Source: Chlorogloea sp. CCALA 695 (GTDB taxonomy: Bacteria > Cyanobacteriota > Cyanobacteriia > Cyanobacteriales > Chroococcidiopsidaceae). Taken from it: a DNA stretch of 32,000 nt. The position numbers and the translations under genes are program-made. Position 1 is the stretch's first letter; every line of letters starts with the position of its first letter. Shown piece by piece: positions 4,610 to 29,137 of the stretch. The notes beneath the pieces were generated by a model. It saw nothing but the letters and a program-made list of their open reading frames with translations. It did not search any database and was not told where the DNA came from. The DNA is taken from NCBI RefSeq assembly GCF_003003885.1, contig NZ_PVWN01000003.1:136520-168519 (forward strand), read 5' to 3'.

Positions 4610-5365
4610 ATGTCACCAAACAAGTTTAAGTTTCCAGTAAAAAGTTTGAGTTTAGTTGTCGGCGCGGCTTTGATGCTCGGACAAAATAGCCTAATAGCTA
4701 ATGCTCAAACCCCCGCCGATGTAGTGGTCGATACTGGCTCCAACGGTGGCTCTAATAGCGGCTCTAATAGCGGCACAAACCCTATTTACGATCGCAATAC
4801 TCGTTTTGCTTGCGAGTCTACTAGCGGTCAATACACCGTGATGTACTTCCCCGAAAGCCAACCCAATCAATCTTTTGCTTGGGCAACTCCTTCAGCTTTA
4901 GGCGGTGGGTGGAGTCCTCAAAAACGTTGCAACGAAATTGCTAGAAGATTAGAGCAGTATAGACCAGACGGCTTAATTGAACTAACTACCAGTGTCGAAA
5001 ATGGCTACAATACCGTTTGCGTAACTACCGAGCAAGTTCCCACTTGTCGGATTGTTTTAACTGTACCCCCCGGACAAGATCCTTTAACTACCCGCGATCG
5101 CGTTTTTGAAAATTTGACTGTAGCCGATAGCGGACAGCAAACTCAAGGAGTTTATACCTACTCCGCCGGACGAGGAAACTCTCAAGTAGACCAACTAATA
5201 AATAGAGGGAGAGCGATTTTAGGCGGCTCAAATAATAGCCAACAGAGTAATGCTATCAATCTGCGACCATTTTTAGATCGCGCTGATGGCGGAACGGGTG
5301 CAATGCTAAATAACGGCGTACCAGCAAAAACCCAACGCCAGCTAAAACCTGGTAGTTTCCGTTAG
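4610..5365 (+). CDS. Secreted COP23-like (circadian oscillating protein) domain protein
   Basis: 251 aa with a signal peptide (KSLSLVVGAALMLGQNSLIANAQ) and a GSNS low-complexity linker. The Cys-containing core FACE..GQYTVMY..W..P..RC..IA.R...NGYNTVCV...C matches my recollection of the COP23 family. Confidence 0.55.
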   Translation: MSPNKFKFPVKSLSLVVGAALMLGQNSLIANAQTPADVVVDTGSNGGSNSGSNSGTNPIYDRNTRFACESTSGQYTVMYFPESQPNQSFAWATPSALGGGWSPQKRCNEIARRLEQYRPDGLIELTTSVENGYNTVCVTTEQVPTCRIVLTVPPGQDPLTTRDRVFENLTVADSGQQTQGVYTYSAGRGNSQVDQLINRGRAILGGSNNSQQSNAINLRPFLDRADGGTGAMLNNGVPAKTQRQLKPGSFR

Positions 5366-13166: not shown

Positions 13167-13415
13167 ATGAATGGAGCAAAAAAAAAGATTCTTGCTGCCT
13201 TGGGTCAACTTGTTAAGCAGCGCCGAGTAGCATTGAAAATTTCTCAAGAAGAACTAGGGCTACGCGCTAACTTAGATCGAACATACATTTCTGGAGTAGA
13301 ACGAGGCTTACGCAACCCTTCTTTAACGGCTCTTACCAGCCTTGCTAGTGGATTAGGTATTACTGTTGCAAATCTTCTGGACAATTTAGAGATAGAAGTG
13401 GAAAAGATAAAGTGA
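13167..13415 (+). CDS. XRE-family HTH controller (C) protein of an R-M system
   Basis: 82 aa with HTH ISQEELGLRANLDRTYISGVERGLRNPSL. Its stop overlaps the next ORF start (GTGA), and a C-box lies upstream. Confidence 0.8.
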   Translation: MNGAKKKILAALGQLVKQRRVALKISQEELGLRANLDRTYISGVERGLRNPSLTALTSLASGLGITVANLLDNLEIEVEKIK

Positions 13416-13940
13416 GTAAGGGAACTTTAGCAGAAACGATTAAATCGCAACTAAAAGCAGACTCAAGCCAATATAAAGTCTTTAATCTTCTATCCGATCA
13501 AAAATGGCATTGTCGGCAATGTGAGGGAAAACAAATAGCTTCAGGTCAGTATGCTGGTGGTGGCGGAATCCAAGGTTTACAACGCGGGGGAACAAAGCGC
13601 CGATCATCGGTTTCCAATGGAGCGATGGAGAGAAAGTGAACCACCACACCTTAGTTCTATGAGTGAGAATGAAATAAAAAAAAAGTTTCAGTTATTGAAA
13701 AAAGATGCGTCTGGCAATCATAATCTTTTAAAATCAAGAAGTTGCGAACGCTGCATTAAAACAGACAATAGAGGTACGCCCTTTAACATCAAGTTTTGGT
13801 ACGAAGGCGGCGAAAAATGGTCTTCGAGCCACAAAAAAGGTGCGGAAGCTGAAGCGGGTTGTGTAGGATGTGGTTGGTATGATTTTGCCGCTTGGCGCAA
13901 CGCTCTTAATCAAAAACTATCTTCTCCTCACAATGATTGA
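13412..13940 (+). pseudogene. Putative restriction endonuclease gene, apparently split by a frameshift
   Basis: Two overlapping ORFs in different frames (13412-13639 and 13551-13940) together fill the C-to-M interval. The first is coupled to the C gene. Cys pairs are present (WHCRQCEG, CERC, CVGCG). A G5 run lies at 13586-13590 within the overlap. Confidence 0.45.
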
Positions 13941-15087
13941 CAACAACTTGAGTTGAAGATGCGATCGCATTCAAATTAGGTATGAGCGCATAACCTATAC
14001 ACTCGGCTAGCCGGGGAGGTACAGCATTACCAATTTGCCACATTGCCTTTTTCATTGAACCCGCAAAAATAAAACTATCGGGAAATGTTTGAAATCGAGC
14101 CATTTCACGGGCAGAAATTACGCGGTTAAGGTACGGATGGATGTGAGTACCGCCGTGATTTTCCTTAATAGTCATGCTAGGTTTGCCTGGATACTGGCGT
14201 TTAAAAGCATCAACATAGGTTTCGTACAATGAACCGCCTGGAGGAACTTTTGCCAGTCGTTCCATGTATTCTTGTGAATGTCGAGTCCACTGATGGTTTA
14301 TTTCAGGAATAGGAGTATAGGCTGGAAGATCAAAAATAGCTGACTCAATAGGTTTGTAGTTTTCCATCGCTAATTGAGCTTTCGGGTATGGGTTGCTTTT
14401 TCCAAATCTGTTAGCAATAAAAATTGCTCTGGGGCGAATTTGTGGTAATCCATAATCCGCAGATTCAAGAATGGCAATAGAAATATGGGGATAACCAATG
14501 GCTGCAAAAGCGTCACAAATGGCTTTTTTGACAGCGCCATTTTTAATAGTCAAAATCCCCGGTACATTTTCCATGACAACATACCAAGGTCGAATTTCTG
14601 CAACAATGCGGATAAATTCTTGAAATAAACGATTGCGATTGTCCTCTGGATTGCGTTTTCCGGCAACAGAGAAACCTTGACACGGCGGGCCTCCTACCAC
14701 AAGATGGACTTCAGTAGAAAGAAGATCGCCCTGCCAATTTTTGGGATTGAAGGTTTCTATGTCACCACAAAAATGATGGCATTCTTGAAAGTTTCTTGTA
14801 TAAGTTTCTGAAGCAACTGGGTTAACTTCTACACTCGCTACTGGTTTAAATCCTGCTGTTAGTAAGCCTTGGGTCATGCCTCCTGCACCACAGAAAAGAT
14901 CGACAAATGTATAGTTAATCATTGGATTAACAGGCGATGCAACGTCTACAAATATTTTGGATGTGTCGTAGTTATTTGCATCTAATTCGCGTTTAATGCG
15001 TTCGTAACGACCCAACTTTGCTTTCTTTTGCTTCTTAATGATGTCTTCTTTGATTTTAGAAAACAAAGATAGCTGTATGTTTTGCAT
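13906..15087 (-). CDS. DNA (cytosine-5)-methyltransferase
   Basis: 393 aa with motif I DLFCGAGGMTQG, motif IV GGPPCQGFS, motif VI MENVPG, motif VIII QIRPRAIF and motif X GNAVPP. Convergent with the C-R operon, with 3' ends overlapping. Confidence 0.95.
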   Translation of the reverse strand: MQNIQLSLFSKIKEDIIKKQKKAKLGRYERIKRELDANNYDTSKIFVDVASPVNPMINYTFVDLFCGAGGMTQGLLTAGFKPVASVEVNPVASETYTRNFQECHHFCGDIETFNPKNWQGDLLSTEVHLVVGGPPCQGFSVAGKRNPEDNRNRLFQEFIRIVAEIRPWYVVMENVPGILTIKNGAVKKAICDAFAAIGYPHISIAILESADYGLPQIRPRAIFIANRFGKSNPYPKAQLAMENYKPIESAIFDLPAYTPIPEINHQWTRHSQEYMERLAKVPPGGSLYETYVDAFKRQYPGKPSMTIKENHGGTHIHPYLNRVISAREMARFQTFPDSFIFAGSMKKAMWQIGNAVPPRLAECIGYALIPNLNAIASSTQVVVNHCEEKIVFD

Positions 15088-15262: not shown

Positions 15263-16726
15263 TTATTGCATTCGGTCGATAGTTCGGTACTGCACAGCCT
15301 CCGCAACGTGGCTTGTAAGTAAATTTTCTTCCCCGGCTAAGTCGGCAATAGTTCTTGCTACTTTAAGGATGCGATCGCTTGCTCTAGCTGATAGACCGAG
15401 TTTACGAATCGCTACTTCTAATAAATTGCGGCTAGAATCATCAAGCTGACACCACTGCTGTAAATGGCGGCTTTGCATCGCGGCATTGCAAAGTAGGTTT
15501 TTTTCTGCCTTAAAACGATTGTAAGCCATGTCGCGGGCTTGCTTGACGCGGATACGGACAGGTTCGGAGGCTTCTCCCCTAGGTTGAGCGGTAATTTCTT
15601 CAGGCTTTAATCGATTAACCGCAACTTGCAAATCGATTCTGTCCATCAACGGCCCAGAAAGTTTTGCCCAATATTGTTCTCTTTGCCTAGGTGAACAACT
15701 GCAAGCTTGAATAGTGTCGCCAAAATAGCCGCAGGGACAAGGGTTTGTGCTGGCAATTAAAGTAAACTGTGCTGGAAACATCACCGATTGGCGAGTACGT
15801 GACACTGTTACATAGCCGTCTTCTAAAGGCTGGCGGAGAAATTCTAATACATCGCGCTTAAATTCTGTAAGCTCATCCAAAAAAAGTATACCCCGGTGGG
15901 CTAAAGATATCTCTCCAGGACGCGGAAAACTACCGCCGCCAACTAGCGCTGGGCCAGAGGCGGAATGGTGCGGACTGCGAAAGGGGCGATCGCGTACCAA
16001 CAATCCACGATTTTTTAATAACCCAGCGACAGAATGAACTTGAGTAACTTCTAAAGACTCCTCAAAACTCAAAGGTGGCAAAATGCCCGGTAAACGCCTA
16101 GCAAGCATAGTTTTTCCACTCCCCGGCGGCCCCACAAAAATTAAATTATGCCCTCCCGCCGCCGCTATCTCTAAGGCTCTACGAGCATGAACTTGTCCTT
16201 TGACATCTTTTAAATCTGCACTATTTACTAGCGACGTTACTAAGATTGTTTCATCTAGCTTTACTGGCTCATAACGCTCTGGTTGATTTAAAAAAGTTGC
16301 TACTTCTGCTAAATATTTGAAACCATATACATTTAATCCGGCAACTACCGCCGCTTCTTGGGCATTGTCAAAAGGTACAACTAAGCTAGTAATCCCTAGT
16401 TTTTTTGCCGCCGCCGCAATAGGTAAAACTCCCGCCACCGATCGCAATGTCCCATCAAGGGAAACTTCGCCTAAAAATAAATGATCTCCCAATAACTGAG
16501 CGCTCACCTGCTCGGAAGCTGCCATAATGCCTACACTAATTGGTAAGTCAAAGCTCGGCCCCTCTTTGCGTAAGTCCGCCGGAGTTAAGTTAATAATGAT
16601 TTTTCGCAGAGGAAAAGCATAACCAGCATTTTTCAGCGCGGCTTTTACCCTTTCGCGGGATTCTTGGACGGCGGTATCGGGCAAACCTACAAGCACTATT
16701 GCTGGTAAACCGCCTGATACATCAAC
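15263..16726 (-). pseudogene. comM: comM/yifB (Mg-chelatase-like AAA+ ATPase), 3' part from codon 22/23 onward, severed by the CAST insertion
   Basis: The ORF has a Lon-protease-like N-domain (GLPDTAVQESRERVKAAL), Walker A (GPPGSGKT) and a ChlI-like C-terminus. The first 11 codons of the tracked ORF (MSQRQTISHCT, TTG start) are encoded by the transposon end, not by comM. Confidence 0.9.
16722..16726. repeat. Target-site duplication copy 1 (TCAAC)
   Basis: TCAAC lies immediately outside TGTACAGTGAC. An identical pentamer is at 27446-27450, just outside the other terminus. Confidence 0.8.
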
Positions 16727-16940
16727 TGTACAGTGACTAATTGTTTGTCGTTGGGACAAATTGTTGTCATCTGATAAAGCCTTATACAGCAGACATTGTA
16801 GCTATTTAATATCATATGGTCAATTCATTAGTAGTGACATAATAAATGTCATTTTCTATGATCTTGACAAGTTAACTGTCGCTTTAAGAATTGGGGAAAA
16901 GTTTTGTATATTTTCATAATGACAAATTGACTGTCGCTTT
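16727..16940. repeat. tnsB-proximal transposon end with about 5 TnsB-binding-type repeats
   Basis: TGTACAGTGACTAATTGTTTGTCGTT, GGGACAAATTGTTGTCAT, GTGACATAATAAATGTCAT (about 16833), TTGACAAGTTAACTGTCGCTTT (about 16864) and ATGACAAATTGACTGTCGCTTT (about 16919). Confidence 0.8.
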
Positions 16941-16953
16941 TCAAACAGTTAAG

Positions 16954-16968
16954 ATAACATTATGTGTT
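16954..16968. promoter_or_regulatory. CvkR-type operator upstream of tnsB
   Basis: ATAACATTATGTGTT fits the palindromic AnnACATnATGTnnT motif recalled for CvkR. It matches the cas12k-proximal site at 14 of 15 nt and ends 17 bp before the tnsB ATG. Confidence 0.6.
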
Positions 16969-16984
16969 TATAAAGTTTGCTTTT

Positions 16985-18739
16985 ATGAGCAGAGAGGAAA
17001 GTTTTGATTTGACTGTTCATACCCTAGAAATCCCTGGGAAAGACATACCAATAGCAGATAACACACCCTCTGAAACTAATGTAATTGTGACAAATCTCTC
17101 GGAGGAAGCTCAACTTAAGCTAGAAGTCTTAAAAAGTTTGATCGAACTGTGCGATCGCACTACCTATGGGCAGAAGTTGCAGGAGGCGGCTGGAAAACTA
17201 GGTGTATCGGTGCGAACTGTGCAAAGGCTAGTCAAAAAGTGGGAGCAGGATGGCGTAGCTGGACTCACTCAAACTGGCAGGGCTGATAAAGGAAAACATC
17301 GAATTGGTGAGTTTTGGGAAACCTTCATCCTCAAAACCTATCGGGAGGGTAATTAGGGTAGTAAACGCATGACCCCCAAACAAGTTGCTCTTAGAGTCCA
17401 GGCTAAAGCCCATGCGCTAGAGGACGTTAAGCCGCCTAATTACAAAACTGTATTACGAGTATTAGCACCCATCTTAGAAAAACAAGAAAAAACTAAGAGT
17501 ATCCGCAGCCCTGGTTGGAGAGGGACAACACTTTCAGTTAAAACTCGTGAAGGAAAAGATTTATCCGTTGATTACAGCAACCATGTTTGGCAATGCGACC
17601 ACACCCGTGTAGATGTATTACTGGTAGATCAACATGGTGAACTCCTAAGCCGTCCTTGGTTAACAACAGTAATCGATACTTATTCACGCTGCATTATGGG
17701 TATTAATTTAGGCTTTGATGCACCTAGCTCTGAGATTGTGGCATTAGGATTGCGTCATGCTATTTTGCCCAAATTGTACGGTGCAGAATACAAGTTACAT
17801 TGCGAGTGGGGAACCGATGGTAAGCCAGAACATTTTTACACTGATGGCGGTAAAGATTTTCGCTCTAACCACTTGAGTCAGATTGCAACGCAATTAGGTT
17901 TTGTTTGTCATTTACGCGATCGCCCTTCTGAAGGTGGAGTAGTCGAACGTCCCTTCAAAACATTAAATGACCAGCTATTTTCAACACTTCCTGGCTATAC
18001 AGGTTCTAATGTACAAGAACGCCCAAAGGATGCAGAGAAGGATGCAAGACTAACTCTGAGAGAACTGGAACAGCTACTTGTGGGTTACATAGTGAATCGT
18101 TACAACCAAAGTATTGATGCTCGTATGGGCGATCAAACTAGATTTGGGCGTTGGGAAGCAGGATTGCCTACAGTGCCAGTATCAATATCAGAACGAGAGT
18201 TGGATATCTGTTTAATGAGGCAGTCACGGCGTACTGTGCAAAGAGGTGGTTACTTGCAGTTTCAGAACTTGATGTATCGAGGGGAATATCTGGAAGGTTA
18301 TGCAGGGGAAACTGTGAACTTAAGGTTTAACCCTAGAGATATTACAACGATTCTGATTTATCGTCAAGAGAAAAATCAGGAAGTATTTCTCACTCGCGCT
18401 CATACTCAAGGTTTGGAGACAGAGAAACTGTCATTAGATGAGGCTGAGGTAGCAAGCCGCAGACTTCGCGCCGCAGGTAAAACTATCAGTAATCAATCAT
18501 TATTGCAAGAAGTTCTTGAACGTGATGCTTTTGTGACCAGTAAGAAAAGCCGTAAGGATCGGCAAAAGTTGGAGCAAGCTGTTTTACGACCTACTCCGAT
18601 CAATGAAAGTAAAACAGAGTTTTTGTCTTTTCAAATAGTTGAACCGGATGATTTGGAGTCAACGGCTGAAATTAAATTCACTTGCGAAGAACTTGAGGTG
18701 TGGGACTATGACCAACTTCGTGAAGAATATGGGTTTTAG
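16985..18739 (+). pseudogene. tnsB: TnsB DDE transposase (V-K CAST) interrupted by one in-frame TAG
   Basis: The two tracked ORFs (16964-17356 and 17369-18739) are in the same frame, reading ...TYREGN-TAG(17354-17356)-GSKRMTPKQVALRV.... The likely true start is the ATG at 16985 (MSREESFDLTVHTLEIPG). The HTH N-domain, DDE core (WQCDHTRVD, YTDGGKDFRS, ERPFKTLN) and C-terminal tail are all present. Confidence 0.85.
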
Positions 18740-18742
18740 ACA

Positions 18743-19573
18743 ATGATAGAAGCTCAAGACTTCGCCAATCAATTGGGTGGAGTGAAACCAGATGATGAGT
18801 GGTTACAAATTGAAATTACTCGTCTCAAGGGAAAGAGTATTGTTCCATTACATCAAGTAAAAACTCTCCACGATTGGCTAGATGGAAAGCGCAAATCCAG
18901 ACAATCCTGTCGAGTAGTTGGGGAATCAAGAACTGGCAAGACTGTTGCCTGTGATGCCTATAGGTATAGACAAAAACCACAGCAAGAAGTTGGTAGACCC
19001 CCGATCGTACCTGTTGTTTATATTCAGCCTCCACAAAAATGTGGCTCTAAGGATTTATTTAAGGAGATGATTGAGTACCTTAAGTTTCGTGCAACCAACG
19101 GGACTGTTTCAGATTTTCGTGGTAGAGCGATGGAGGTACTCAAGGGGTGTGGGGTAGAAATGTTGATTATTGATGAAGCAGATCGTCTTAAGCCTGAAAC
19201 GTTTGCTGAGGTGCGAGATATTTATGACAAGTTAGGCATTGCTGTAGTATTAGTAGGAACAGACCGCTTGGAGGCAGTGATCAAGCGGGATGAACAAGTT
19301 TATAACCGTTTTCGGGCTTGCCATCGCTTTGGTAAGTTATCGGGGAAAGAATTCCAAGATACAGTGCAAGCTTGGGAAGAGAGGGTTTTAAAGCTGCCTT
19401 TATCTTCTAATTTAACTAGCAAGGATATGTTACGAATTCTCACATCGGCAACTGGAGGTTACATTGGTCGGCTAGATGAAATTCTCAGGGACGCAGCGAT
19501 TCGGTCGTTATCCAAGGGGTTTAAAAAGATTGATAAGGCTGTTTTACAGGCAGTTGCTCAGGAGTATAAGTAA
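18743..19573 (+). CDS. tnsC: TnsC AAA+ ATPase (V-K CAST)
   Basis: 276 aa with Walker A GESRTGKT and Walker B LIIDEADRL. High similarity to my recollection of ShCAST TnsC. Tightly coupled to tnsB and tniQ. Confidence 0.93.
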   Translation: MIEAQDFANQLGGVKPDDEWLQIEITRLKGKSIVPLHQVKTLHDWLDGKRKSRQSCRVVGESRTGKTVACDAYRYRQKPQQEVGRPPIVPVVYIQPPQKCGSKDLFKEMIEYLKFRATNGTVSDFRGRAMEVLKGCGVEMLIIDEADRLKPETFAEVRDIYDKLGIAVVLVGTDRLEAVIKRDEQVYNRFRACHRFGKLSGKEFQDTVQAWEERVLKLPLSSNLTSKDMLRILTSATGGYIGRLDEILRDAAIRSLSKGFKKIDKAVLQAVAQEYK

Positions 19574-20079
19574 TGACAGCACCAGATATTAAACCTTGGC
19601 TTTTCATTGTAGAACCATATCTAGGGGAAAGCCTAAGCCATTTTTTAGGTCGATTTAGACGTGCTAACCATTTGTCCCCTGCTGGGCTGGGTAATTTAGC
19701 AGAAATTGGTGCTGTAGTGGCACGTTGGGAAAGATTTCATTTTAACCCTCGCCCTAGTCAGCAAGAATTGAGTGCGATCGCATCTGTTGTAGAAGTGGAT
19801 GCCAAGACGTTAGCCGAGATGCTGCCACCTGCTGGGGTGGGTATGCAGCATGAACCCGTTAGGTTATGTGGTGGTTGTTATGCAGAAATACCTTGTCACC
19901 GGATTGCGTGGCAGTTTAAGGAGACGGGGAAATGCGATCGCCACAATTTGCGTTTACTGTCTAAGTGTCCCAAGTGCGAGGCTAGATTCAAAATTCCAGC
20001 TTTATGGGAGGATGGATGCTGCAATCGCTGTCGGTTGCCGTTTGGTAATATGGTAAGTTGTCAAAAGTTAGCGCTCTAA
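19573..20079 (+). CDS. tniQ: TniQ (short V-K type)
   Basis: 168 aa. PWLFIVEPYLGESLSHFLGRFRRANHLS plus Cys-rich zinc-ribbon motifs (CGGCY, CDRH, CPKC, CCNRC). The ATGA-type overlap with tnsC supports coupling. Confidence 0.92.
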   Translation: MTAPDIKPWLFIVEPYLGESLSHFLGRFRRANHLSPAGLGNLAEIGAVVARWERFHFNPRPSQQELSAIASVVEVDAKTLAEMLPPAGVGMQHEPVRLCGGCYAEIPCHRIAWQFKETGKCDRHNLRLLSKCPKCEARFKIPALWEDGCCNRCRLPFGNMVSCQKLAL

Positions 20080-20099
20080 GCTAATTAAAGAAAGCCAGT

Positions 20100-22151
20100 T
20101 CAACTGTCATTCAGAGAAAAGGCATAGTTACCATCTGGAAATCTGATAACTGGAACCCAGAAAGGTACTCCATCCCAACCACCTTGAGCATCAACGTTAC
20201 CTCTTAATCTAGTCATCAACAAAGTAGGATAATTGGGGTCAACACCATAAGGTATGTTCCCTGCATCACCAGGCATAACGCTACCAAGTTGGGTATAGTT
20301 CCTACTAGCGCTTTTCTTTAAATTTGAGTCTCTGTTAATAATTAATAATATACCTGTGTTTTGATATCTGGGATTATCTCGCAGAGTAAAAACAGCTTGC
20401 CTGATCAAATCATCATTCCAAGCACCACTTGATTCAGGCGTTGCATAGTGAAACTTAAGAATCTCTAACATCTCATCAATTGTTGCGTTATATGGCTGTT
20501 TCAGACTAGGATACTTAGCTATAGACAGAAGATTATCAAGTTCCTGAGTTTGGTTACTCAAAGTATTAGGTTCAGATATTGGTAGGGATGGAAAATACTG
20601 CTTTCCTCCTTGATAAGTTACCAAATTAACCGTATTTTCATTTAATACATTACGGCGAGTCGGTTTTATTCCTTTCGCTACCAAAGGAATCACCTGAATA
20701 GGTAAATTAGTTGCCTGACACTGCTCTCTAACTAAATTATCACTGACATGAATATCTACAAATCTTTGAGCTAAATGAACTGGTAAATAAATACGAGTTG
20801 CTGGTAGTTCATTTTGACGGTATCCATACATTCTTGCGTGCTGTAAAACTGTATCCATCTGAGGTTGTTGAGCATCTCTACCATAGTAAGTAACTAGAAG
20901 ATCCTTGACAGTCACACCCCGCCCTATCTTTGTACCACCTATGTAAAGGGTATGTTTTCTTGCTGGAGTAGGTTTAATTCCTTCACCACTATCAGAGTTA
21001 ATTTCTATAATTTCTGTAGAGGTTATTCGTCTTGCTGTTTCTACTAAAACATCATGAAATGGTGGAACATTTACAAAAGTTTGTTGTAAATCATCGTAAG
21101 CATTTTGTAATTGTGTTCTGAGCGCAGAAGATACACCTATTATTGGGTCATTAGGATTTTGTCTAAGCTGGTTCATCAATTCCTGCTTAAATTTATCAAC
21201 TAATTCTGCTGCTAAATGATGCTGTTCCTGTCTAAAGCTAGTATGCAGCAGATATGTATAGTTTTTTCGATTTTCCTGTATCCTTAAAATTGCTGCCCCT
21301 AGAAAAAATACCAACATTGACTGTATCACAGTATCAGGAATACGATTGCTAGTCTGCAACCTACCAAGCTCAATGTCAGGTACTAAGCGAATATGATTTG
21401 AATTACTAAAGTTACTGTCACCAAAAAAATAGTTACCACCAACGTAACCTGTACCAGGTATAGTAACAACTACAAAATTTGGTCTAAAAGCACTTTGACT
21501 ATCTTGTAATAATAATGATTGAGGAGTAGCGGTAGTTTGCAAGTATGTATGAGAATTAAGATAAGTTCTTAAATCAACAATTGCTCGATTTACTGCGCTT
21601 GTAGGTTTGTTTAGATCATTAATATTAGTATCTAAACTAGCTTGATCTGCCTCATCGTCAATAATGATAACTGATTGAGCTTGCCAGTTTGATATCCGAA
21701 CAATATTTAAAGCACCTCGCAAATGGGTTGGATGTTTAGGACAAACTAAAGCTAGTAGTAAACCAGGAGTAGCTCTTGAATTTTGTTTAATTTCTGTCTT
21801 ACCAAAAACTTGAAAACTATCTAATGCTCCTTTGATTCTTTCAAGCGTCTGCTCATAGATATCATTTAGATTTGATGTCATAACTACGAAATTATTAAAG
21901 CCGTTATCTGCGGCTAATGCCATCGTTGTCAGAATAACGGATGTTTTCCCGCTTTGGATATGTCCATAAATTAATCCTTTCACAGAACCAATTTTTGCAG
22001 GCTCTAAACATCTTTCTAATACTTCAATTGCCGTCTTAAGTATTAACTCAAAATCAGCATATGAAATATTTTCTTCATCATGTAGATACTCTTTGAGATT
22101 ACTAATATTATCTCCTTCTAAAGTATTTATCTGTGCCATATTATACCTCAT
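20100..22151 (-). CDS. Z1-domain ATPase/helicase-like protein (methylase-associated putative restriction component), CAST cargo
   Basis: 683 aa with Walker A GHIQSGKTS, DEAD-like IIIDDEADQAS, TTATPQS, and the Z1 signature GGTKIGRGVTVKDLLVTYYGR...DTVLQHARMYGYR. Immediately downstream of a C5-MTase in the same orientation. Confidence 0.75.
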   Translation of the reverse strand: MRYNMAQINTLEGDNISNLKEYLHDEENISYADFELILKTAIEVLERCLEPAKIGSVKGLIYGHIQSGKTSVILTTMALAADNGFNNFVVMTSNLNDIYEQTLERIKGALDSFQVFGKTEIKQNSRATPGLLLALVCPKHPTHLRGALNIVRISNWQAQSVIIIDDEADQASLDTNINDLNKPTSAVNRAIVDLRTYLNSHTYLQTTATPQSLLLQDSQSAFRPNFVVVTIPGTGYVGGNYFFGDSNFSNSNHIRLVPDIELGRLQTSNRIPDTVIQSMLVFFLGAAILRIQENRKNYTYLLHTSFRQEQHHLAAELVDKFKQELMNQLRQNPNDPIIGVSSALRTQLQNAYDDLQQTFVNVPPFHDVLVETARRITSTEIIEINSDSGEGIKPTPARKHTLYIGGTKIGRGVTVKDLLVTYYGRDAQQPQMDTVLQHARMYGYRQNELPATRIYLPVHLAQRFVDIHVSDNLVREQCQATNLPIQVIPLVAKGIKPTRRNVLNENTVNLVTYQGGKQYFPSLPISEPNTLSNQTQELDNLLSIAKYPSLKQPYNATIDEMLEILKFHYATPESSGAWNDDLIRQAVFTLRDNPRYQNTGILLIINRDSNLKKSASRNYTQLGSVMPGDAGNIPYGVDPNYPTLLMTRLRGNVDAQGGWDGVPFWVPVIRFPDGNYAFSLNDS

Positions 22152-22180
22152 TAAGTTATTAGAAATTTAGTAAATAAAAG

Positions 22181-23563
22181 CTATAGCTTTAGTATGTATC
22201 GCGCTATCGCTAGTGTTAAAAGAAAACTAACAGTATTAGCTAACTGCTGTTGCTTGTGCGCTAAACCCAGACCTTTAGAATTATCAGTAGTGCCACAAAA
22301 AGTAAACCAATCAGGAAGAGACTGTAGACGACTGGCTTCCCGTAATGATAATCCTCTATTTTGCTCTGGATGAATTATCATGCTTTTACGATAATTACCA
22401 ATTGTGATTGAAGGTTCATCCCATCTTAACCGTCTGTAGATATTGCTATGGGTATTTTCTATGTCAGAATAATTAGTCATCATGTGTCGAATATTCTTCC
22501 AGTTTCCACCCGCCGGAATGTGTCTATACCTATCAATTACATAATCCGCCTGTTTTGAAACAATGTGACCTTCAATAGTATCTAGGCTTGCCATTTGGCG
22601 CATTTGTTGCAAAAACGGATTCGAGTTTAATTGTTCCTGTGTAGGTTCGTCGTACTCTTGAACAACTCGGCTTTCACCATTCTCAACCACAGGTAGACTG
22701 GCAATTGCTTCTTTGACTGTCACATAGTTGTATCTACCTATTGCTCCATGTGTAGGTAAGGGAAATGCGCCCCATTCACCAAAACTATCAACTTTATAAC
22801 CTAAACTTTGGTGCAATGCCAATAAAAAAAATCTATTCCGGTGTTGTGGAACTCCATACCAAGCAGCATCTAAAACTGCGGGGAAAAGAATATACCCAGC
22901 ATCCGCAAATTTTCTGGCAATATAATCAACTACCGTTAATTTGTGCTTATTTTTGCCTTTGTTAGAACGAGGTGTCCATAAAATACCCTGTACATTTTCC
23001 AAAAGAATTGCTTTCGGTGCTAGTTCTAAGGAACATTCGATAAAGTATTCAACGAGTTGATTATAAGTATTCTTAGCATTCCAATTACTTCGATTGGATT
23101 GTGAAAAACCTTGGCAAGGTGTTCCACCAATAACAAGATCGACACCATCTGCTCTTTTAACGCTTTCATATACCAGTTGGCAATCGTGTTTTTTGGTTAA
23201 ATCGATAGGGATAAAGTTGTTAGGAATACTGTCTTGGATGCTTTTAGTTGAGTGATTATAAAAATGTTTATAATTAGTTTCGAGACTTCTTAAATATATC
23301 GGATTAATTTCGGCAGATTTTATAATTCTGAAGCATTTTTTTTTGTCCCCAGCCATCAGAAATCCAACCCCCATTCCGCCTGCTCCAGCAAAAAGCTCAA
23401 CTACACGTACATCATTTCTGGAGGCTGTGAGCGCACCATGTAGAGCAATATCTTGCTTTACTGGAGACAAAGAGCTATTAAGTTCCTGATCTTGTTCTTT
23501 AGATAATTTAATATTAGCTCTATAACGAACCCTCGACCCTGGATTGCAAGCTGGCTTGATCAT
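22181..23563 (-). CDS. DNA (cytosine-5)-methyltransferase, CAST cargo
   Basis: 460 aa with motif I ELFAGAGGMGVGF, motif IV GGTPCQGFS, motif VI LLENVQG and motif VIII QHRNRFF. Visibly AT-richer than the flanking host genes. Confidence 0.9.
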   Translation of the reverse strand: MIKPACNPGSRVRYRANIKLSKEQDQELNSSLSPVKQDIALHGALTASRNDVRVVELFAGAGGMGVGFLMAGDKKKCFRIIKSAEINPIYLRSLETNYKHFYNHSTKSIQDSIPNNFIPIDLTKKHDCQLVYESVKRADGVDLVIGGTPCQGFSQSNRSNWNAKNTYNQLVEYFIECSLELAPKAILLENVQGILWTPRSNKGKNKHKLTVVDYIARKFADAGYILFPAVLDAAWYGVPQHRNRFFLLALHQSLGYKVDSFGEWGAFPLPTHGAIGRYNYVTVKEAIASLPVVENGESRVVQEYDEPTQEQLNSNPFLQQMRQMASLDTIEGHIVSKQADYVIDRYRHIPAGGNWKNIRHMMTNYSDIENTHSNIYRRLRWDEPSITIGNYRKSMIIHPEQNRGLSLREASRLQSLPDWFTFCGTTDNSKGLGLAHKQQQLANTVSFLLTLAIARYILKL

Positions 23564-23667
23564 AAAATATTTTTTTTAAGCAAGGAATTGAATTATAAGA
23601 CAGTTTGCATCTGGGCTAAATACCCACGTACAAGTTGAAATTAGTATCAGGATTACAGTATTAACAC

Positions 23668-24120
23668 TTATTTAACATAACTTTGGAGATTATCCCTTAA
23701 TTGTTGATGCACGTGATCGCACCAAAGAGGAATCACAGTTTGCCCCTGACAAAGTGCTTCTAGCGCTACTTGCTTGTCAAACTCTGCTATTCGCAAAAGT
23801 TGTCCCTGCGATCGCCTGGCTAAAAACATCAGTCGCTTCATCTGTTTTTGGGTAACAGACGGCTCGAATAACCAAGGTTCTTCCTCACGTAATGTCTCTA
23901 AAGCTGCATGGCAAACCTCAAAATTTAAACCGATTGACAGCAATTGTTCCATCACTGCCAGTGCCAATAAGTCAGCCTTGGAATAGTAAACATTACGACC
24001 CTTACCAGTCGTGTTGACCGTAGGTACAATAATTCCCTTCTCACGCCAATACTGTAACTGTCGCCGAGAGCAATTAGTAATTTTTGCTGCTTCTGTGCTG
24101 GTATAGAACTTTTCTTCCAT
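23668..24120 (-). CDS. cvkR: MerR-family repressor of V-K CAST (CvkR-like)
   Basis: 150 aa with a MerR HTH (YTSTEAAKITNCSRRQLQYWREKGII). Divergent from cas12k with an 80-bp intergenic region carrying the palindromic operator. Confidence 0.8.
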   Translation of the reverse strand: MEEKFYTSTEAAKITNCSRRQLQYWREKGIIVPTVNTTGKGRNVYYSKADLLALAVMEQLLSIGLNFEVCHAALETLREEEPWLFEPSVTQKQMKRLMFLARRSQGQLLRIAEFDKQVALEALCQGQTVIPLWCDHVHQQLRDNLQSYVK

Positions 24121-24166
24121 AAAACCATCCTATAGAAGCATTTCCTGAAACACACTAAATTTTTAA

Positions 24167-24181
24167 ACAACATTATGTGTT
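24167..24181. promoter_or_regulatory. CvkR-type operator in the cvkR-cas12k divergent promoter region
   Basis: ACAACATTATGTGTT fits AnnACATnATGTnnT and ends 20 bp before the cas12k ATG. Confidence 0.65.
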
Positions 24182-24200
24182 TTTGTGATATTGTATTTTC

Positions 24201-26117
24201 ATGAGTCAAAGTACCGTTCAATGCCGCTTAATTGCCAGTACATCCACTCGTCAACAACTTTGGAAGTTGATGGCACAATTAAATACACCCCTAATTAACG
24301 AAATACTTCAACAGCTTAATAAACATCCAGACTTTGAGAAATGGCGGAAAAATGGCAAACTGCCATCAACTGTTGTTAGCCAACTTTGCCATCCCCTGAA
24401 AACGGATCTTCGCTTTGTAGGTCAGCCCAGTCGTTTGTATACATCAGCAATTCATGTTGTCGATTACATCTACAAATCTTGGTTAGCAATCCATAAACGT
24501 TTACAGCAGCAGCTAGATGGCAAAATACGCTGGCTAGAAATGCTCAACAGTGATGCTGAATTAGTAGAAACTAGCTTTTGTAGCTTAGAGGAGATTCGTA
24601 CCAAAGCTGCTGATATTTTGGCAATGACTACGCCAGAATCTGACGCTAATGCTCCTTTAATTGAAAGAAGAAAGACTAAGAAATCAAAAAAATCATCTAC
24701 TTCAAATTCTGACCGGGGATTATCTCATAAATTATTTGATGCTTACCAAAATACCGAAGACAGACTCCGTCGTAGCGCCATCAGCTATCTGCTGAAAAAT
24801 GGCTGTAAACTGAAGGACAAAGAAGATCCGGAACAATTTGCTAAACGCCGTCGTAAGCTAGAAATCCAAATTCAAAGGCTGACAGAAAAGCTAACAAGTC
24901 GAATTCCTAAAGGTCGAGATTTGGCTAATGCCAAATGGTTGGAAACACTCTTTACTGCTACAACTACTGTTCCAGAAGACAATGCTGAAGCCAAACGCTG
25001 GCAAGATATTTTATTAACCAGATCGAGTCTCCTCCCCTTTCCCCTGGTCTTTGAAACAAACGAAGACCTTGTTTGGTCAACAAATGAAAAAGGTCGGCTA
25101 TGTGTCCACTTCAATGGCTTGAGCGATTTAACTTTTGAAGTGTACTGCGATAGTCGTCAACTGCATTGGTTTAAACGCTTCTTAGAAGACCAACAGACTA
25201 AACGTAAAAGCAAAAATCAGCATTCTAGTGGCTTGTTTACCCTTAGAAATGGTCGTTTAGCTTGGCTTGAAGGCAAAGGTAAAGGCGAACCTTGGGAACT
25301 TCACCACTTAACTCTCTACTGCTGTGTTGATACTCGCCTGTGGACTACTGAAGGCACAGAACAAGTGCGCCAGGAAAAAACAAATGAGATTACTAAATTT
25401 ATTACAAAGATGAAGGAGAAGACAGACCTGAGTGTCACTCAGCAAGCTTTTGTTCAGCGTAAACAATCAACACTTACTCGAATAAATAATTCCTTTGAGC
25501 GTCCCAATAAACCTGTTTACCAAGGTCAATCAAACATTTTGGTTGGAGTAAGCTTAGGACTAGAGAAACCTGCCACAGTAGCGGTAGTAGATGCGCTCAC
25601 CAACAAAGTCTTGGCTTGCCGGAGTACCAGACAACTACTTAATGAAAATTACGAGCTTCTAAATCGCCAAAGACGACAACAGCAATCTTTATCCCACGAA
25701 CGCCACAAAGCCCAAAAAAGCTTCTCTCCCAACCAACTTGGAGCTTCTGAGTTAGGGCAGTATGTAGACAGATTATTGGCTAAAGAAATTGTAGCGATCG
25801 CACAAAGCTATTTTGCAGGCAGTATAGTATTGCCTAAGCTGGGTGATATGCGAGAGATTATTCAATGTGAAATTCAAGCCATAGCCGAGGCAAAATGTCC
25901 TGGTTCCAAAGAAATTCAAAAAAATTATGCCAAGCAATATCGAGTAAACGTCCATCAATGGAGCTATGGCAGATTACTTCAAAACATTCAAAGTAAAGCT
26001 ACTCAGATGGGAATTGTGATTGAAGAAGGTAAACAACCTGTTCGTGGTAGTCCCCAAGACAAAGCACAAGAATTAGCACTCTCTGCTTACAAGCTGCGCC
26101 TAGCTAGGCAAAGTTGA
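24201..26117 (+). CDS. cas12k: Cas12k (nuclease-deficient type V-K effector)
   Basis: 638 aa. Collinear with my recollection of ShCas12k along the whole length (MSQ..Q.RLI, QQLWKLMA.LNTPLINE, GLFTLRNG, VGVSLGLEKPATVAVVDA, YRVNVH.WSYGRL). Confidence 0.95.
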   Translation: MSQSTVQCRLIASTSTRQQLWKLMAQLNTPLINEILQQLNKHPDFEKWRKNGKLPSTVVSQLCHPLKTDLRFVGQPSRLYTSAIHVVDYIYKSWLAIHKRLQQQLDGKIRWLEMLNSDAELVETSFCSLEEIRTKAADILAMTTPESDANAPLIERRKTKKSKKSSTSNSDRGLSHKLFDAYQNTEDRLRRSAISYLLKNGCKLKDKEDPEQFAKRRRKLEIQIQRLTEKLTSRIPKGRDLANAKWLETLFTATTTVPEDNAEAKRWQDILLTRSSLLPFPLVFETNEDLVWSTNEKGRLCVHFNGLSDLTFEVYCDSRQLHWFKRFLEDQQTKRKSKNQHSSGLFTLRNGRLAWLEGKGKGEPWELHHLTLYCCVDTRLWTTEGTEQVRQEKTNEITKFITKMKEKTDLSVTQQAFVQRKQSTLTRINNSFERPNKPVYQGQSNILVGVSLGLEKPATVAVVDALTNKVLACRSTRQLLNENYELLNRQRRQQQSLSHERHKAQKSFSPNQLGASELGQYVDRLLAKEIVAIAQSYFAGSIVLPKLGDMREIIQCEIQAIAEAKCPGSKEIQKNYAKQYRVNVHQWSYGRLLQNIQSKATQMGIVIEEGKQPVRGSPQDKAQELALSAYKLRLARQS

Positions 26118-26142
26118 CAGATATCCGAACCTTGATAATAGA

Positions 26143-26365
26143 ATATTTAATAGCGCCGCAGTTCATGCTGTTTACAGCCTCTGAACTGTGTTAAATGAGG
26201 GTTAGTTTGGCTGTAGCAATATAGTCTTGCTTTCTGACCCTAGTAGCTACTCACCCTGATGCTGCTGTCTTTATGACAGGATAGGTGCGCTCCCAGCAAT
26301 AAGGGCGCGGATGTACTGCTGTAGTGGCTACTGAATCACCCCCGATCAAGGGGGAACCCTCCCCA
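26143..26365 (+). ncRNA. tracrRNA of the V-K system
   Basis: ATATTTAATAGCGCCGCAGTTCATGCTG...GGATAGGTGCGCTCCCAGCAATAAGGGCGCGGATGTACTGCTGTAGTGGCTACTGAATCACCCCCGATCAAGGGGGAACCCTCC is near-identical in blocks to the ShCAST tracrRNA as I recall it. The 3' AACCCTCC is the anti-repeat for GG(C/T)GGGTT. Ends are approximate. Confidence 0.85.
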
Positions 26366-26564
26366 ATTCTTCCTTTGAAGAACTAAATTTGAGGCAAAAT
26401 TTCTCAGATACCCGCGCAAGTTCCAAATAGCTTGTCCAGTCTGGCTTTTATCGTTTTTTTATCAAAAAGTGATTCTTAAGGCTGAGGCTCAGATAGTAAA
26501 TTGAGGGACATTCGCGCTTGTGACATCTAGAAACATTGCCCCACAGTATTTTAAGCTTGGTGGT

Positions 26565-26978
26565 GTCACAACAACCCTCCAGGTACTCAGGCGGGTTGAA
26601 AGCGACAGTAAATATTAGTATTTTTATATAAAAAAGTCACAACAACCCTCCAGGTACTAGGCGGGTTGAAAGTTAAATCTACTTATTCTAAGTTATTAAG
26701 GGATACGTCACAACAACCCTCCAGGTACTAGGCGGGTTGAAAGGAAAAGCTGGTATGCCCCAGAGGTGACACTAGAGTCACAACAACCCTCCAGGTACTA
26801 GGCGGGTTGAAAGTTGTTTCTACTGGAAATAAAGGAATCACCCCGCAAGTCACAACAACCCTCCAGGTACTAGGCGGGTTGAAAGTAATAATTTCGCAAG
26901 CAAACAGTGGAGCCTGGATGTCAAACAAGCCTCCAGGTACTAGGTGGGTTGAAAGAGCAAGAGTATGGATTGAAGCCA
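26565..26978 (+). CRISPR. V-K CRISPR array: 6 repeats, 5 regular spacers plus a terminal homing spacer
   Basis: Repeat GTCACAACAACCCTCCAGGTACTAGGCGGGTTGAAAG at 26565-26602 (38 nt, one extra C), 26636-26672, 26707-26743, 26777-26813 and 26849-26885. A diverged repeat GTCAAACAAGCCTCCAGGTACTAGGTGGGTTGAAAG is at 26920-26955. Spacers are 33, 34, 33, 35 and 34 nt. The terminal spacer starts at 26956. Confidence 0.95.
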
Positions 26979-27332
26979 AACTCAAAATATCCCTCGATAA
27001 TAGCTTTAAAGGCTGCAAACTTTCGTTAGTGTGCAGAACGAACAGCAGGTCAAGGAACAGGTAAGTCTTAAACTAAAAGGGATGGCAATGGAAAAGAATA
27101 TGCCGAAAAGAAAGCAACATGAGTTCAAAATGTTTCTCTGCAATTTGTAATAGTTGACAGTCAAATTCTACATTTGGTGTTTGCTTATTTATCCAGATAA
27201 TATACGTGGAATGTAGCTACCAATAACTGAGGACTATTACGACTAAGAATTTTTTGCAACACAACCTTGAGCAAAGTTCGTTTAAAGTTAAAGAGTGATA
27301 CGTTGACATCATCGCTACAGTCTCTGTAAGTT

Positions 27333-27445
27333 AATGACATTAATCCGTCACTGACACTTAAAAGACATTAATTTGTCTCGACGACAATTAAATAGTAATA
27401 ATGACACTAATGTGTCACCGACGACAAATAATTAGTCACTGTATA
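27333..27445. repeat. CRISPR-proximal (target-proximal) transposon end with about 4 TnsB-binding-type repeats
   Basis: Read inward from the terminus: TATACAGTGACTAATTATTTGTCGTCG, GTGACACATTAGTGTCAT, GAGACAAATTAATGTCTTT, GTGACGGATTAATGTCAT. The layout resembles what I recall as the ShCAST LE. Confidence 0.8.
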
Positions 27446-27450
27446 TCAAC
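27446..27450. repeat. Target-site duplication copy 2 (TCAAC)
   Basis: Identical to 16722-16726. The base just inside the element at this end (A, 27445) equals the host base preceding the other TSD copy (A, 16721), so a 6-bp duplication cannot be excluded. Confidence 0.8.
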
Positions 27451-27513
27451 CTCTACACCTACTTTGACGGCATCAATCCCAACAATTGCCGCACTCCATA
27501 CTCTTGCTAACAT
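27451..27513 (-). pseudogene. comM: comM/yifB 5' fragment (start codon plus first ~21 codons)
   Basis: The minus strand reads ATG TTA GCA AGA GTA TGG AGT GCG GCA ATT GTT GGG ATT GAT GCC GTC AAA GTA GGT GTA GAG (MLARVWSAAIVGIDAVKVGVE). It continues in frame through the TSD (GTTGA) into VDVSGGLP at 16726. Confidence 0.88.
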
Positions 27514-27568: not shown

Positions 27569-27919
27569 ATGAGTGAAACTACAGAGACAATTTTTAGTAA
27601 AATTATTCGTCGGGAAATACCCGCAGATATTGTTTACGAAGATGAATTGGCGATCGCCTTTAAAGATGTCCATCCTCAAGCCCCCGTCCATATCTTAGTT
27701 ATCCCCAAGCAGCCAATTAAATCTTTAGCTGATGTTACATCTGGCGATCAAGACTTAATGAGTCATTTATTAGTGACGGCTCAACAAGTTGCTCTCAATG
27801 CTGGGCTTACTAATGGCTACCGCTTGGTCATTAATACTGGCAATGATGGCGGTCAAACCGTTTCCCACATTCACTTACACATTTTGGGCGGCAGACAAAT
27901 GACTTGGCCCCCCGGTTGA
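27569..27919 (+). CDS. HIT (histidine triad) family protein
   Basis: 116 aa with the histidine triad HIHLHILGG and an N-terminal FSKIIRREIPA. Confidence 0.9.
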   Translation: MSETTETIFSKIIRREIPADIVYEDELAIAFKDVHPQAPVHILVIPKQPIKSLADVTSGDQDLMSHLLVTAQQVALNAGLTNGYRLVINTGNDGGQTVSHIHLHILGGRQMTWPPG

Positions 27920-28054
27920 ACTATAAGCAAAACTGATTACTCTCATAACCTTAGCCAAATTAAAATACCTTTACAAAACTAAATAGAGGAGGTAGATTGA
28001 ATACAAGGAAGCAAAAAACTTCTGATTATCCAAAAATCAAGCAATCATAAAGAA

Positions 28055-29137
28055 ATGACAACAACATTACAAAGACGCGAAAGCGCCAGCGTATGGGAAA
28101 GATTCTGTAGCTGGGTAACATCCACCGAAAACCGTCTATACGTAGGCTGGTTCGGAGTATTGATGATCCCCACACTACTAGCAGCAACAACCTGCTTCAT
28201 CATCGCCTTCATCGCCGCACCACCAGTAGACATCGACGGCATCCGCGAGCCAGTAGCAGGTTCATTAATCTACGGAAACAACATCATCACCGGTGCAGTA
28301 GTACCATCCTCGAACGCCATCGGCTTGCACTTCTACCCAATATGGGAAGCAGCATCATTGGACGAATGGTTGTACAACGGCGGCCCTTACCAATTAGTAG
28401 TATTCCACTTCTTAATCGGAATATTCTGCTACATGGGACGTGAGTGGGAACTATCATACAGACTCGGAATGCGCCCCTGGATTGCAGTAGCTTATTCCGC
28501 ACCAGTAGCCGCAGCAACAGCAGTATTTTTAATCTACCCAATCGGACAAGGATCATTTTCCGACGGGATGCCTTTAGGAATCAGTGGAACATTCAACTTC
28601 ATGTTAGTATTCCAAGCGGAACACAACATCTTGATGCACCCCTTCCACCAGTTAGGAGTAGCCGGAGTATTCGGCGGTTCATTATTCAGCGCCATGCACG
28701 GCAGCTTGGTAACATCAAGCCTAGTTCGTGAAACAACAGAAACCGAAAGCCAAAACTACGGATACAAATTCGGACAAGAAGAAGAAACCTACAACATCGT
28801 TGCAGCCCACGGCTACTTCGGACGGTTGATCTTCCAATACGCATCATTCAACAACAGCCGCAGCTTGCACTTCTTCCTAGCAGCATGGCCAGTAATTGGC
28901 ATCTGGTTTACATCCTTGGGCATCAGCACCATGGCATTCAACCTCAACGGATTCAACTTCAACCAGTCAGTAATTGACTCTCAAGGACAAGTAATCGGCA
29001 CTTGGGCAGACGTACTCAACCGCGCTAACTTAGGAATGGAAGTAATGCACGAGCGCAATGCTCACAACTTCCCTCTAGACTTGGCTGCGGGTGAAGCGAC
29101 ACCAGTTGCTCTAACTGCTCCAGCGATCAACGGTTAA
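28055..29137 (+). CDS. psbA: Photosystem II reaction-centre protein D1
   Basis: 360 aa of unmistakable D1 sequence ([25 protein letters not shown]). Residue 130 is Glu (YMGREWELS), as in D1:2-type isoforms. Confidence 0.98.

Follow-up and report, generated by a model that had tools for sequence, protein, structure and literature searches.

The analysed stretch of the cyanobacterium Chlorogloea sp. CCALA 695 (32,000 nucleotides (nt) of contig NZ_PVWN01000003.1, forward-strand positions 136,520 to 168,519; hereafter the window, numbered from its first letter) carries a complete type V-K transposon of 10.7 kb (16727-27445) inside comM. This element is a CAST, i.e., a CRISPR-associated transposon. 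The last repeat-spacer unit of its CRISPR array, 26920-26972, very probably encodes the attachment-site-targeting (att-targeting, or "homing") CRISPR RNA (crRNA) of this CAST, and would thereby account for the insertion at the start of comM. The guide-target match, its protospacer-adjacent motif (PAM), orientation and spacing, the target-site duplication, the split of comM and the empty sites are observed directly in the sequences. Together with the comM reading frame that is restored on removal of the element, they support what a preceding sequence-only reading of the window had proposed, namely that the guide explains the insertion site.

The phenomenon, and this very guide-target pair, are already published: Hsieh & Peters (bioRxiv 2021, 10.1101/2021.02.06.429022) list the spacer and protospacer on PVWN01000003.1 as att-targeting in row 57 of their Table S1. 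The row gives cas12k at 160720-162636, att_spacer AGCAAGAGTATGGATTG at 163475-163491 and att_protospacer AGCAAGAGTATGGAGTG at 164011-164027 (minus strand); subtraction of 136519 converts these coordinates to those of the window. It further records the handle TAGGTGGGTTGAAAG, a PAM field AATGTT, one mismatch, tnsB as "pseudo" and the right end at 153246, while the att gene field reads "Unknown noncoding region" and the entries for left end and duplication are "-". What we add is the identity of the target as comM and its disruption, the left end and the duplication, the empty sites, the host range of the guide, a fixed mismatch at position 15, the in-register location of the last repeat, and the placement of the tnsB nonsense codon at the Lys124 position.

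The minus strand at 27508-27492 carries a near-copy of the 17 nt following the sixth repeat, AGCAAGAGTATGGATTG: 16 of 17 positions agree, and the single mismatch to the comM protospacer falls on position 15. Over the longer stretch AGCAAGAGTATGGATTGAAGCCA, 19 of 23 nt are identical to minus strand 27508-27486 (AGCAAGAGTATGGAGTGCGGCAA), including all of the first 14; direct sequence comparison thereby bears out the counts of the sequence-only reading. Past nt 17 the similarity is 6/18, which is chance level, so that the meaningful guide unit comprises 17 nt. Uniqueness of the match had been pointed out as a matter to be checked. Within the 32-kb window, shuffled sequence gives 0.15 matches at three or fewer mismatches, and the real match has one mismatch. 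Based on the eight GAAAG/C handles that lie 3' of cas12k inside the element, the downstream flank would be expected to hold 1.1e-4 opposite-strand matches with no more than one mismatch; this number falls to about 2e-8 when a GTN PAM and canonical spacing are required as well. Furthermore, among all 17-mers in the element's non-coding tail (1.3 kb), the homing spacer is the one with the best opposite-strand match to the 200 nt past the element end.

Relative to cas12k, the protospacer is on the opposite strand, just past the array-proximal end, and has the PAM GTT. This is the geometry in which Hsieh & Peters (2021) searched for att guides. The minus strand 27513-27446 encodes MLARVWSAAIVGIDAVKVGVEV, which is identical to the N-termini of the intact ComM proteins P0001-P0006, and the element splits comM inside codon 23. 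Deletion of 16727-27450, i.e., of the element and one copy of the duplicated TCAAC, yields an uninterrupted open reading frame (ORF) of 508 aa, with a score of 750 bits against the YifB/ComM model TIGR00368. Judged from the split frame, comM is inactivated by the insertion. The 5-bp duplication TCAAC is present at both ends and occupies positions +59 to +63 relative to the protospacer; the element ends at position 64, compared with 65 in the native locus of ShCAST, the CAST of Scytonema hofmanni, and 55-68 in relatives. Thus, an opposite-strand protospacer beyond the left end, a GTN PAM and an insertion about 60-66 bp from the PAM are found together. The window contains no tRNA gene, and hence the usual V-K attachment site does not apply here.

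Intact ComM proteins of 508 aa with 94-98% identity exist in public data, and four related contigs (L087-L090) carry an uninterrupted comM at the same psbA-HIT-comM locus. All four have HIT divergent from comM; past HIT, L088 and L090 have homology to psbA, and adenylosuccinate lyase lies downstream in L087 and L088. On the tnsB side, homology to these empty sites breaks at 16727 (16732 for L089, where the duplication overlaps), and on the array side at 27445 (L089, L090) or 27442 (L087, L088). In a wider set of six relatives (L087-L092), HIT, which in the window falls in the region 27569-29137, is always divergent from comM, and psbA is called past HIT in Chroococcidiopsis (L091) and Nostoc (L092). 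In the window, the comM 3' end and adenylosuccinate lyase are separated by a small islet resembling restriction-modification genes (13167-15087), which encodes a second C5 methyltransferase in addition to an Xre-type helix-turn-helix (HTH) protein and a weak IceA-like ORF. The same spot is empty in L087 and holds an Mrr-like gene in L088, which marks it as a variable defence spot beside comM.

The match to the guide differs among the relatives. L089 and L090, with flanks of 93-96% identity, share protospacer and PAM with the window and have a single mismatch to the guide. In L087 and L088 (about 85-88%), positions 4 and 15 are both mismatched. The comM genes of Chroococcidiopsis sp. CCMEE 29 and Nostoc sp. 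NIES-2111 each show four mismatches, and in the latter the PAM is lost (GCT). By these comparisons the predicted homing guide demonstrably has a narrow host range. Position 15 is G, the second base of the Ser7 codon, in six of six targets, whereas the two guide copies known both have T. Hence this mismatch is a lasting feature of the guide rather than recent drift at one locus.

The array consists of six direct repeats (26565-26955) with a spacing of 70-72 nt. Repeats 2-5 are identical (GTCACAACAACCCTCCAGGTACTAGGCGGGTTGAAAG) and are matched by the Rfam family CRISPR-DR15; at gathering thresholds, Rfam reported this family on these four repeats only and nothing on the region of the trans-activating CRISPR RNA (tracrRNA). 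Repeat 1 (26565-26602) has a 1-nt insertion (ACTCAGG vs ACTAGG) and, like repeat 6, remains below the CRISPR-DR15 threshold. Array spacers 1-5 gave no match to plasmid or phage records.

Repeat 6, GTCAAACAAGCCTCCAGGTACTAGGTGGGTTGAAAG (26920-26955), stands in array register, 70 nt after repeat 5. Its 36 nt match the 37-nt consensus at 30/37 positions ungapped and at about 34/37 with one gap. The differences comprise a 1-nt deletion and a C-to-G change within the first 11 nt and a single C-to-T change in the 3' part (GGCGGG to GGTGGG). The sequence-only reading had described a diverged 5' half, a retained tracrRNA-pairing 3' half, and an atypical repeat as the signature of V-K homing, and all three descriptions need trimming. 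The 5' changes are there, but one deletion and one substitution are mild; segments complementary to the tracrRNA do exist, GGGTT/AACCC (26355) and GAAAG/CUUUC (26230), but those found are confined to the last ~13 nt of the repeat instead of spanning its 26-nt 3' half; and the short guide does follow a variant repeat, but one less atypical than had been implied. Unlike in the homing units described as "truncated" or "delocalized", repeat 6 is neither truncated nor strongly diverged, and its unit is not displaced from the array. A ~13-nt repeat 3' handle ending in GGGTTGAAAG and followed by a 17-nt spacer is present at the array end, where TAGGTGGGTTGAAAG plus AGCAAGAGTATGGATTG form the terminal unit. 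V-K homing guides are described by Hsieh & Peters (2021) and later reviews as a 17-nt spacer behind a ~13-nt handle, at or past the end of the array, with a GTN PAM.

At the level of sequence, a tracrRNA gene is recognisable between cas12k and the array, whose ~37-nt repeats end in GTTGAAAG. An alignment of the segment 26118-26956 with the region 3' of cas12k in the ShCAST locus (L018) spans 869 nt at 76% identity, and a terminator-like hairpin is found at 26350-26364. RNAduplex predictions for tracrRNA against crRNA were uninformative, and explicit complementary segments were used instead. A further tracrRNA segment, UCUUGCUUUC (26225-26234), compared with 26951-26964, could pair with the repeat GAAAG and, over a 2-nt bulge, with bases 3-7 (CAAGA) of the homing spacer; this extension into the spacer is probably a coincidence.

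By analogy to the published ShCAST mechanism, processing of the array transcript would yield a crRNA in which ~13 nt of repeat (GGTGGGTTGAAAG) precede the 17-nt spacer. This crRNA would pair with the tracrRNA (about 26142-26366) and load the nuclease-dead Cas12k, which would read the GTT PAM within the first two codons of comM (ATG-TTA) and open an R-loop over codons 2-7. TniQ and TnsC would then mark the site, and TnsB would join the element about 60 bp further on, with the left end target-proximal. As the element has no TnsA, we propose that insertion proceeds by replicative transposition.

The remaining parts of the transposon are those of a V-K CAST, and their coordinates are given in Table 1. 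Cas12k scores 958 bits on NCBIfam NF038191 (V_Cas12k, cutoff 150) and 1119 bits over its full length against ShCas12k (PDB 7n3o). TnsB aligns end to end with ShCAST TnsB (PDB 7svw; 1090 bits, collinear over 583 of 584 aa). The tnsB-tnsC-tniQ operon includes a short TniQ and no tnsA, with the caveat of one in-frame TAG in tnsB; none of the eight ORFs of at least 80 aa in the element has a TnsA-type domain in Pfam or NCBIfam. The tnsB-proximal end starts with TGTACAGTGAC at 16727 and the array-proximal end finishes with GTCACTGTATA at 27445; the two match each other in 23 of their first 26 nt, and over its terminal 69 nt the left end shares 90% identity with the ShCAST end. TGT...ACA inverted ends, TnsB-site repeats and a 5-bp duplication are thus present, although the array-proximal terminus (27440-27445) reads TATACA instead of the usual TGTACA. 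This deviation is probably the reason why the published catalogue lacks a left end and a duplication for this element. The MerR-family gene divergent from cas12k is likened by position only to the arrangement described for CvkR in PMC9938897. The cargo pair, a Z1-domain protein (683 aa) and a C5 methyltransferase (460 aa), also occurs beside an 85%-identical Cas12k on the metagenome contig of P0123 (JGI 3300071358). That contig is flanked by pdxA, not comM, and related elements with similar cargo therefore use different attachment sites.

Table 1. Coordinates of the V-K CAST, its predicted guide and the comM target in the window.
Feature	Position	Strand	Evidence or remark
comM 3' part (YifB-family Mg-chelatase-like AAA ATPase), last base of codon 23 to stop	15263..16726	-	Pfam Mg_chelatase, ChlI, Mg_chelatase_C
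Target-site duplication copy 1 (TCAAC)	16722..16726	.	single copy in empty sites L087-L090
tnsB-proximal ("right") end TGTACAGTGACTAATTGTTT..., TnsB-site-like motifs repeated	16727..16960	+	Table S1 right_end TGTACAGTGACTAATTGTTT at 153246 = window 16727; empty-site breakpoints
tnsB, one in-frame TAG (17354-17356)	16985..18739	+	Pfam HTH, rve, Mu-transpos_C; catalogue "pseudo"
tnsC (TniB-type AAA+ regulator)	18743..19573	+	Pfam TniB, 5e-34
tniQ, 168 aa, no extra DNA-binding domain	19573..20079	+	Pfam TniQ only
Cargo: Z1-domain protein and C-5 cytosine DNA methyltransferase	20100..23563	-	Pfam Z1, DNA_methylase; NCBIfam partial MzaC, dcm
MerR-family regulator divergent from cas12k, CvkR position	23668..24120	-	Pfam MerR_1
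cas12k	24201..26117	+	NF038191, PDB 7n3o
tracrRNA, predicted boundaries	26142..26366	+	homology to ShCAST locus; complementary CUUUC, AACCC; hairpin
CRISPR array, repeats 1-5 and spacers 1-5	26565..26919	+	direct-repeat family; CRISPR-DR15; same repeats/spacers in Table S1 row 57
Sixth, variant repeat supplying handle ...TAGGTGGGTTGAAAG	26920..26955	+	in register, 70 nt after repeat 5
Predicted 17-nt homing (att-targeting) spacer AGCAAGAGTATGGATTG	26956..26972	+	same spacer in L081; catalogued in Table S1 row 57
Array-proximal ("left") end, inward TATACAGTGACTAATTATTTGTCGTC..., TnsB-site-like motifs repeated, inner boundary approximate	27300..27445	-	end match 23/26; direct-repeat families; ShCAST homology
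Target-site duplication copy 2 (TCAAC)	27446..27450	.	same 5 bp at both ends
comM 5' fragment, codons 1-22 and two bases of codon 23	27446..27513	-	translation
Protospacer AGCAAGAGTATGGAGTG, comM codons 2-7, one mismatch (position 15)	27492..27508	-	identical in empty sites L089, L090
PAM GTT	27509..27511	-	G of ATG start codon and TT of Leu2 codon TTA

The same search for a handle plus a 17-nt guide was applied to 80 loci encoding Cas12k relatives. Such a guide, matched downstream on the opposite strand, turned up in 62 of the 80, and a GTN PAM accompanies all 63 guide-target pairs examined. Mismatches in these native V-K pairs fall nearly all on positions 9-17, with position 15 being the commonest; the mismatch in the window is thus a typical one. 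The repeat is less so. In the 61 relatives with a comparable array repeat, the match to that repeat amounts to 11-26 of 37 positions and the unit is usually out of register, displaced by 49-310 nt, compared with 30/37 and an in-register unit in the window. The comM guide spacer (at three or fewer mismatches) was never found behind a repeat handle in the 80 loci, and a tblastn search of these loci with ComM placed comM beside none of them.

A degenerate handle-plus-comM pattern gave no matches in viral contigs and six in metagenome contigs, of which only one, L081 (QQTW01007288.1), is real. Apart from the source genome, whose Cas12k is 100% identical, the Cas12k protein search revealed nothing closer than L081 (88%). 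This contig carries the identical 17-nt spacer behind GTCGTAACAACCCTCCAGGTACTAGGTGGGTTGAAAG. Its MerR-cas12k-tracrRNA-array region is 85% identical in DNA to the window and its Cas12k protein 88% identical, and it represents the comM locus of a related organism, since its left flank with HIT and psbA is 87% identical to that of the window. The homing unit is followed by a putative insertion-sequence remnant and a helicase gene. A second truncated unit, GGGTTGAAAG plus CTTGATTTTCTATGGGC, also occurs after the homing unit and has no match in the contig or the window. The unusual features of L081 concern its positions 900-1230 and 5000-5080. The sequence-only reading had raised the question whether orthologous CASTs in comM share the terminal spacer: L081 does have the identical spacer at the comM locus, but it is rearranged and does not provide a simple occupied site.

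Several observations weigh against assigning 26920-26972 to a homing crRNA that directed this insertion. Uniqueness of the protospacer was checked at the scale of the 32-kb window, and the position-15 mismatch is present against every comM target examined. In L081, a different V-K-type end, TGTACATTCACAAATTA, adjoins the region a few bp upstream of the expected comM ATG, with MerR and cas12k ~290 bp further along; the 8.4-kb contig contains neither tnsBCQ nor comM or a fragment of it, and a search for a guide matching the junction at three or fewer mismatches found none in L081. Finally, tnsB has a single in-frame TAG (17354-17356) at the position of ShCAST TnsB Lys124 (EGN-K-GSKR), while the rest of the 584 aa is collinear and highly conserved. 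This conservation suggests either a recent nonsense mutation or a sequencing error. With this codon the element is probably stuck; a recent immobilisation is suggested, and present-day mobility is doubtful, unless the stop is read through or complemented.

These points bear most on the explanation that the guide is a historical relic, which directed the original insertion but belongs to a unit that is non-functional today, in an element that is fixed and decaying. We consider this to come close to an even chance without quite reaching it. The tnsB stop, the TATACA terminus and the mismatch of the guide to its own target speak for it, but in native V-K pairs no mismatch is commoner than one at position 15, and TnsB, the stop aside, is collinear with and highly similar to its ShCAST counterpart. 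Likewise, L081 is rearranged, with tnsBCQ not seen on its contig; in the window itself, however, the array, the tracrRNA region and the genes cas12k, tnsC and tniQ are all intact. The same genome has another, more distant V-K CAST (contig PVWN01000012.1, Table S1 row 58), which homes to tRNA-Pro; it is a possible source of transposition proteins and may give TnsB in trans.

It is very improbable that the 17-nt identity reflects chance or captured target DNA and that the insertion was directed otherwise, by a protein selector or by untargeted, Cas12k-independent transposition: Tn6022 and Tsy do choose comM via the protein TnsF (PMC10293859), and high off-site targeting (PMC11406308) and crRNA-independent, non-specific integration (PMC11300857) have been reported for V-K and type V CASTs, respectively, but the expectation is 1e-4 or lower (about 2e-8 with PAM and spacing), the match starts exactly at the repeat-spacer junction in the required orientation with a GTT PAM and canonical spacing, Pfam finds no TnsD, TnsF or second TniQ in the element, leaving Cas12k and the 168-aa TniQ as its target-selection genes, TnsF aims at the Walker B region of comM and not at its 5' end (PMC10293859), and the spacer is conserved in L081 while the surrounding sequence diverges. 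The chance and captured-fragment explanations are rejected on statistics, PAM, spacing and orientation.

With 26920-26972 read as the homing unit, the site entered in the catalogue as an unknown noncoding region becomes a defined one, comM codons 2-7, which has little import beyond annotation. The known convergence of Tn7-like elements on comM is extended to the Cas12k family. In addition, guide and target at this locus form a natural pair in which the target is a coding gene, the PAM-distal mismatch (position 15) is fixed and the host range is narrow. The narrow range agrees with the view in the literature that the preference of V-K elements for RNA genes stems from the near-perfect conservation which a 17-nt guide requires. 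Genome engineering gains another natural case of mismatch tolerance and spacing, but no new mechanism.

A broader interpretation is possible, though we lean somewhat against it. The element may represent the first recognised V-K CAST lineage with a private guide aimed at a protein-coding competence gene, which destroys comM and draws its PAM from the start codon. It may be a further independent case of convergence on comM inactivation, after the Tn6022/Tsy TnsF elements, the type I-B1 CASTs and a tyrosine-recombinase element, and its near-intact, in-register repeat could be an early stage in the derivation of "truncated/delocalized" units from ordinary trailer-end spacers.

Attachment sites of V-K elements in the literature are mostly tRNA genes, in addition to ffs, mutS, mutL and a few others, and the only crRNA-guided use of comM as an attachment site described there is that by type I-B1 CASTs (PMC9881144). 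No link of Cas12k or V-K elements to comM was found in the literature searched, which covered the Nucleic Acids Research 2023 paper (PMC9881144) outside its supplement. The I-B1 elements with a comM-targeting final spacer share with the present one the crRNA homing by the last array guide, the occurrence in cyanobacteria and the inactivation of comM. They differ by their I-B Cascade, an ATG PAM and cut-and-paste transposition by TnsA and TnsB, and represent an independent co-option of CRISPR. In the Tn6022/Tsy TnsF elements (Faure et al. 2023, PMC10293859), comM is also the dedicated attachment site and its disruption is tolerated, but recognition is by a protein, TnsF, at the Walker B region, whereas an RNA guide at the comM 5' end is predicted here. 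Neither TnsF nor type I-B Cascade genes were found in the element with Pfam and NCBIfam; it therefore belongs to neither group, although it shares the comM site with both. Type I-F3 CASTs (Petassi et al. 2020), as far as the summary in PMC11406308 describes them, similarly combine an ordinary array with a trailer-end att guide behind a variant repeat, but use Cascade, 32-nt guides and the att sites ffs, guaC, rsmJ and yciA.

The closest parallels are found among the Cas12k elements themselves. The "truncated repeat-spacer units" of Tn7-CRISPR-Cas12k elements (Hsieh & Peters 2021), for which PMC11656645 also gives the name "delocalized crRNA" (citing Saito et al. 2021), have the same 17-nt spacer, ~13-15-nt handle, opposite-strand protospacer, GTN PAM and distance of ~60 bp. 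The unit of the window differs in that it keeps a near full-length, in-register repeat and in that its target, comM codons 2-7, lies in a gene which is disrupted. ShCAST (Scytonema hofmanni UTEX 2349, Tn7747) has a Cas12k of about 79% identity in the best BLAST segment, as well as a homologous tracrRNA region, array and left end. Its native locus combines GGTGGGTTGAAAG and 17 nt with a GTT PAM and a terminus at +65, while its homing unit is located 134 nt past the last repeat, matches the repeat in 23 of 37 positions, and is accompanied by another spacer and other cargo.

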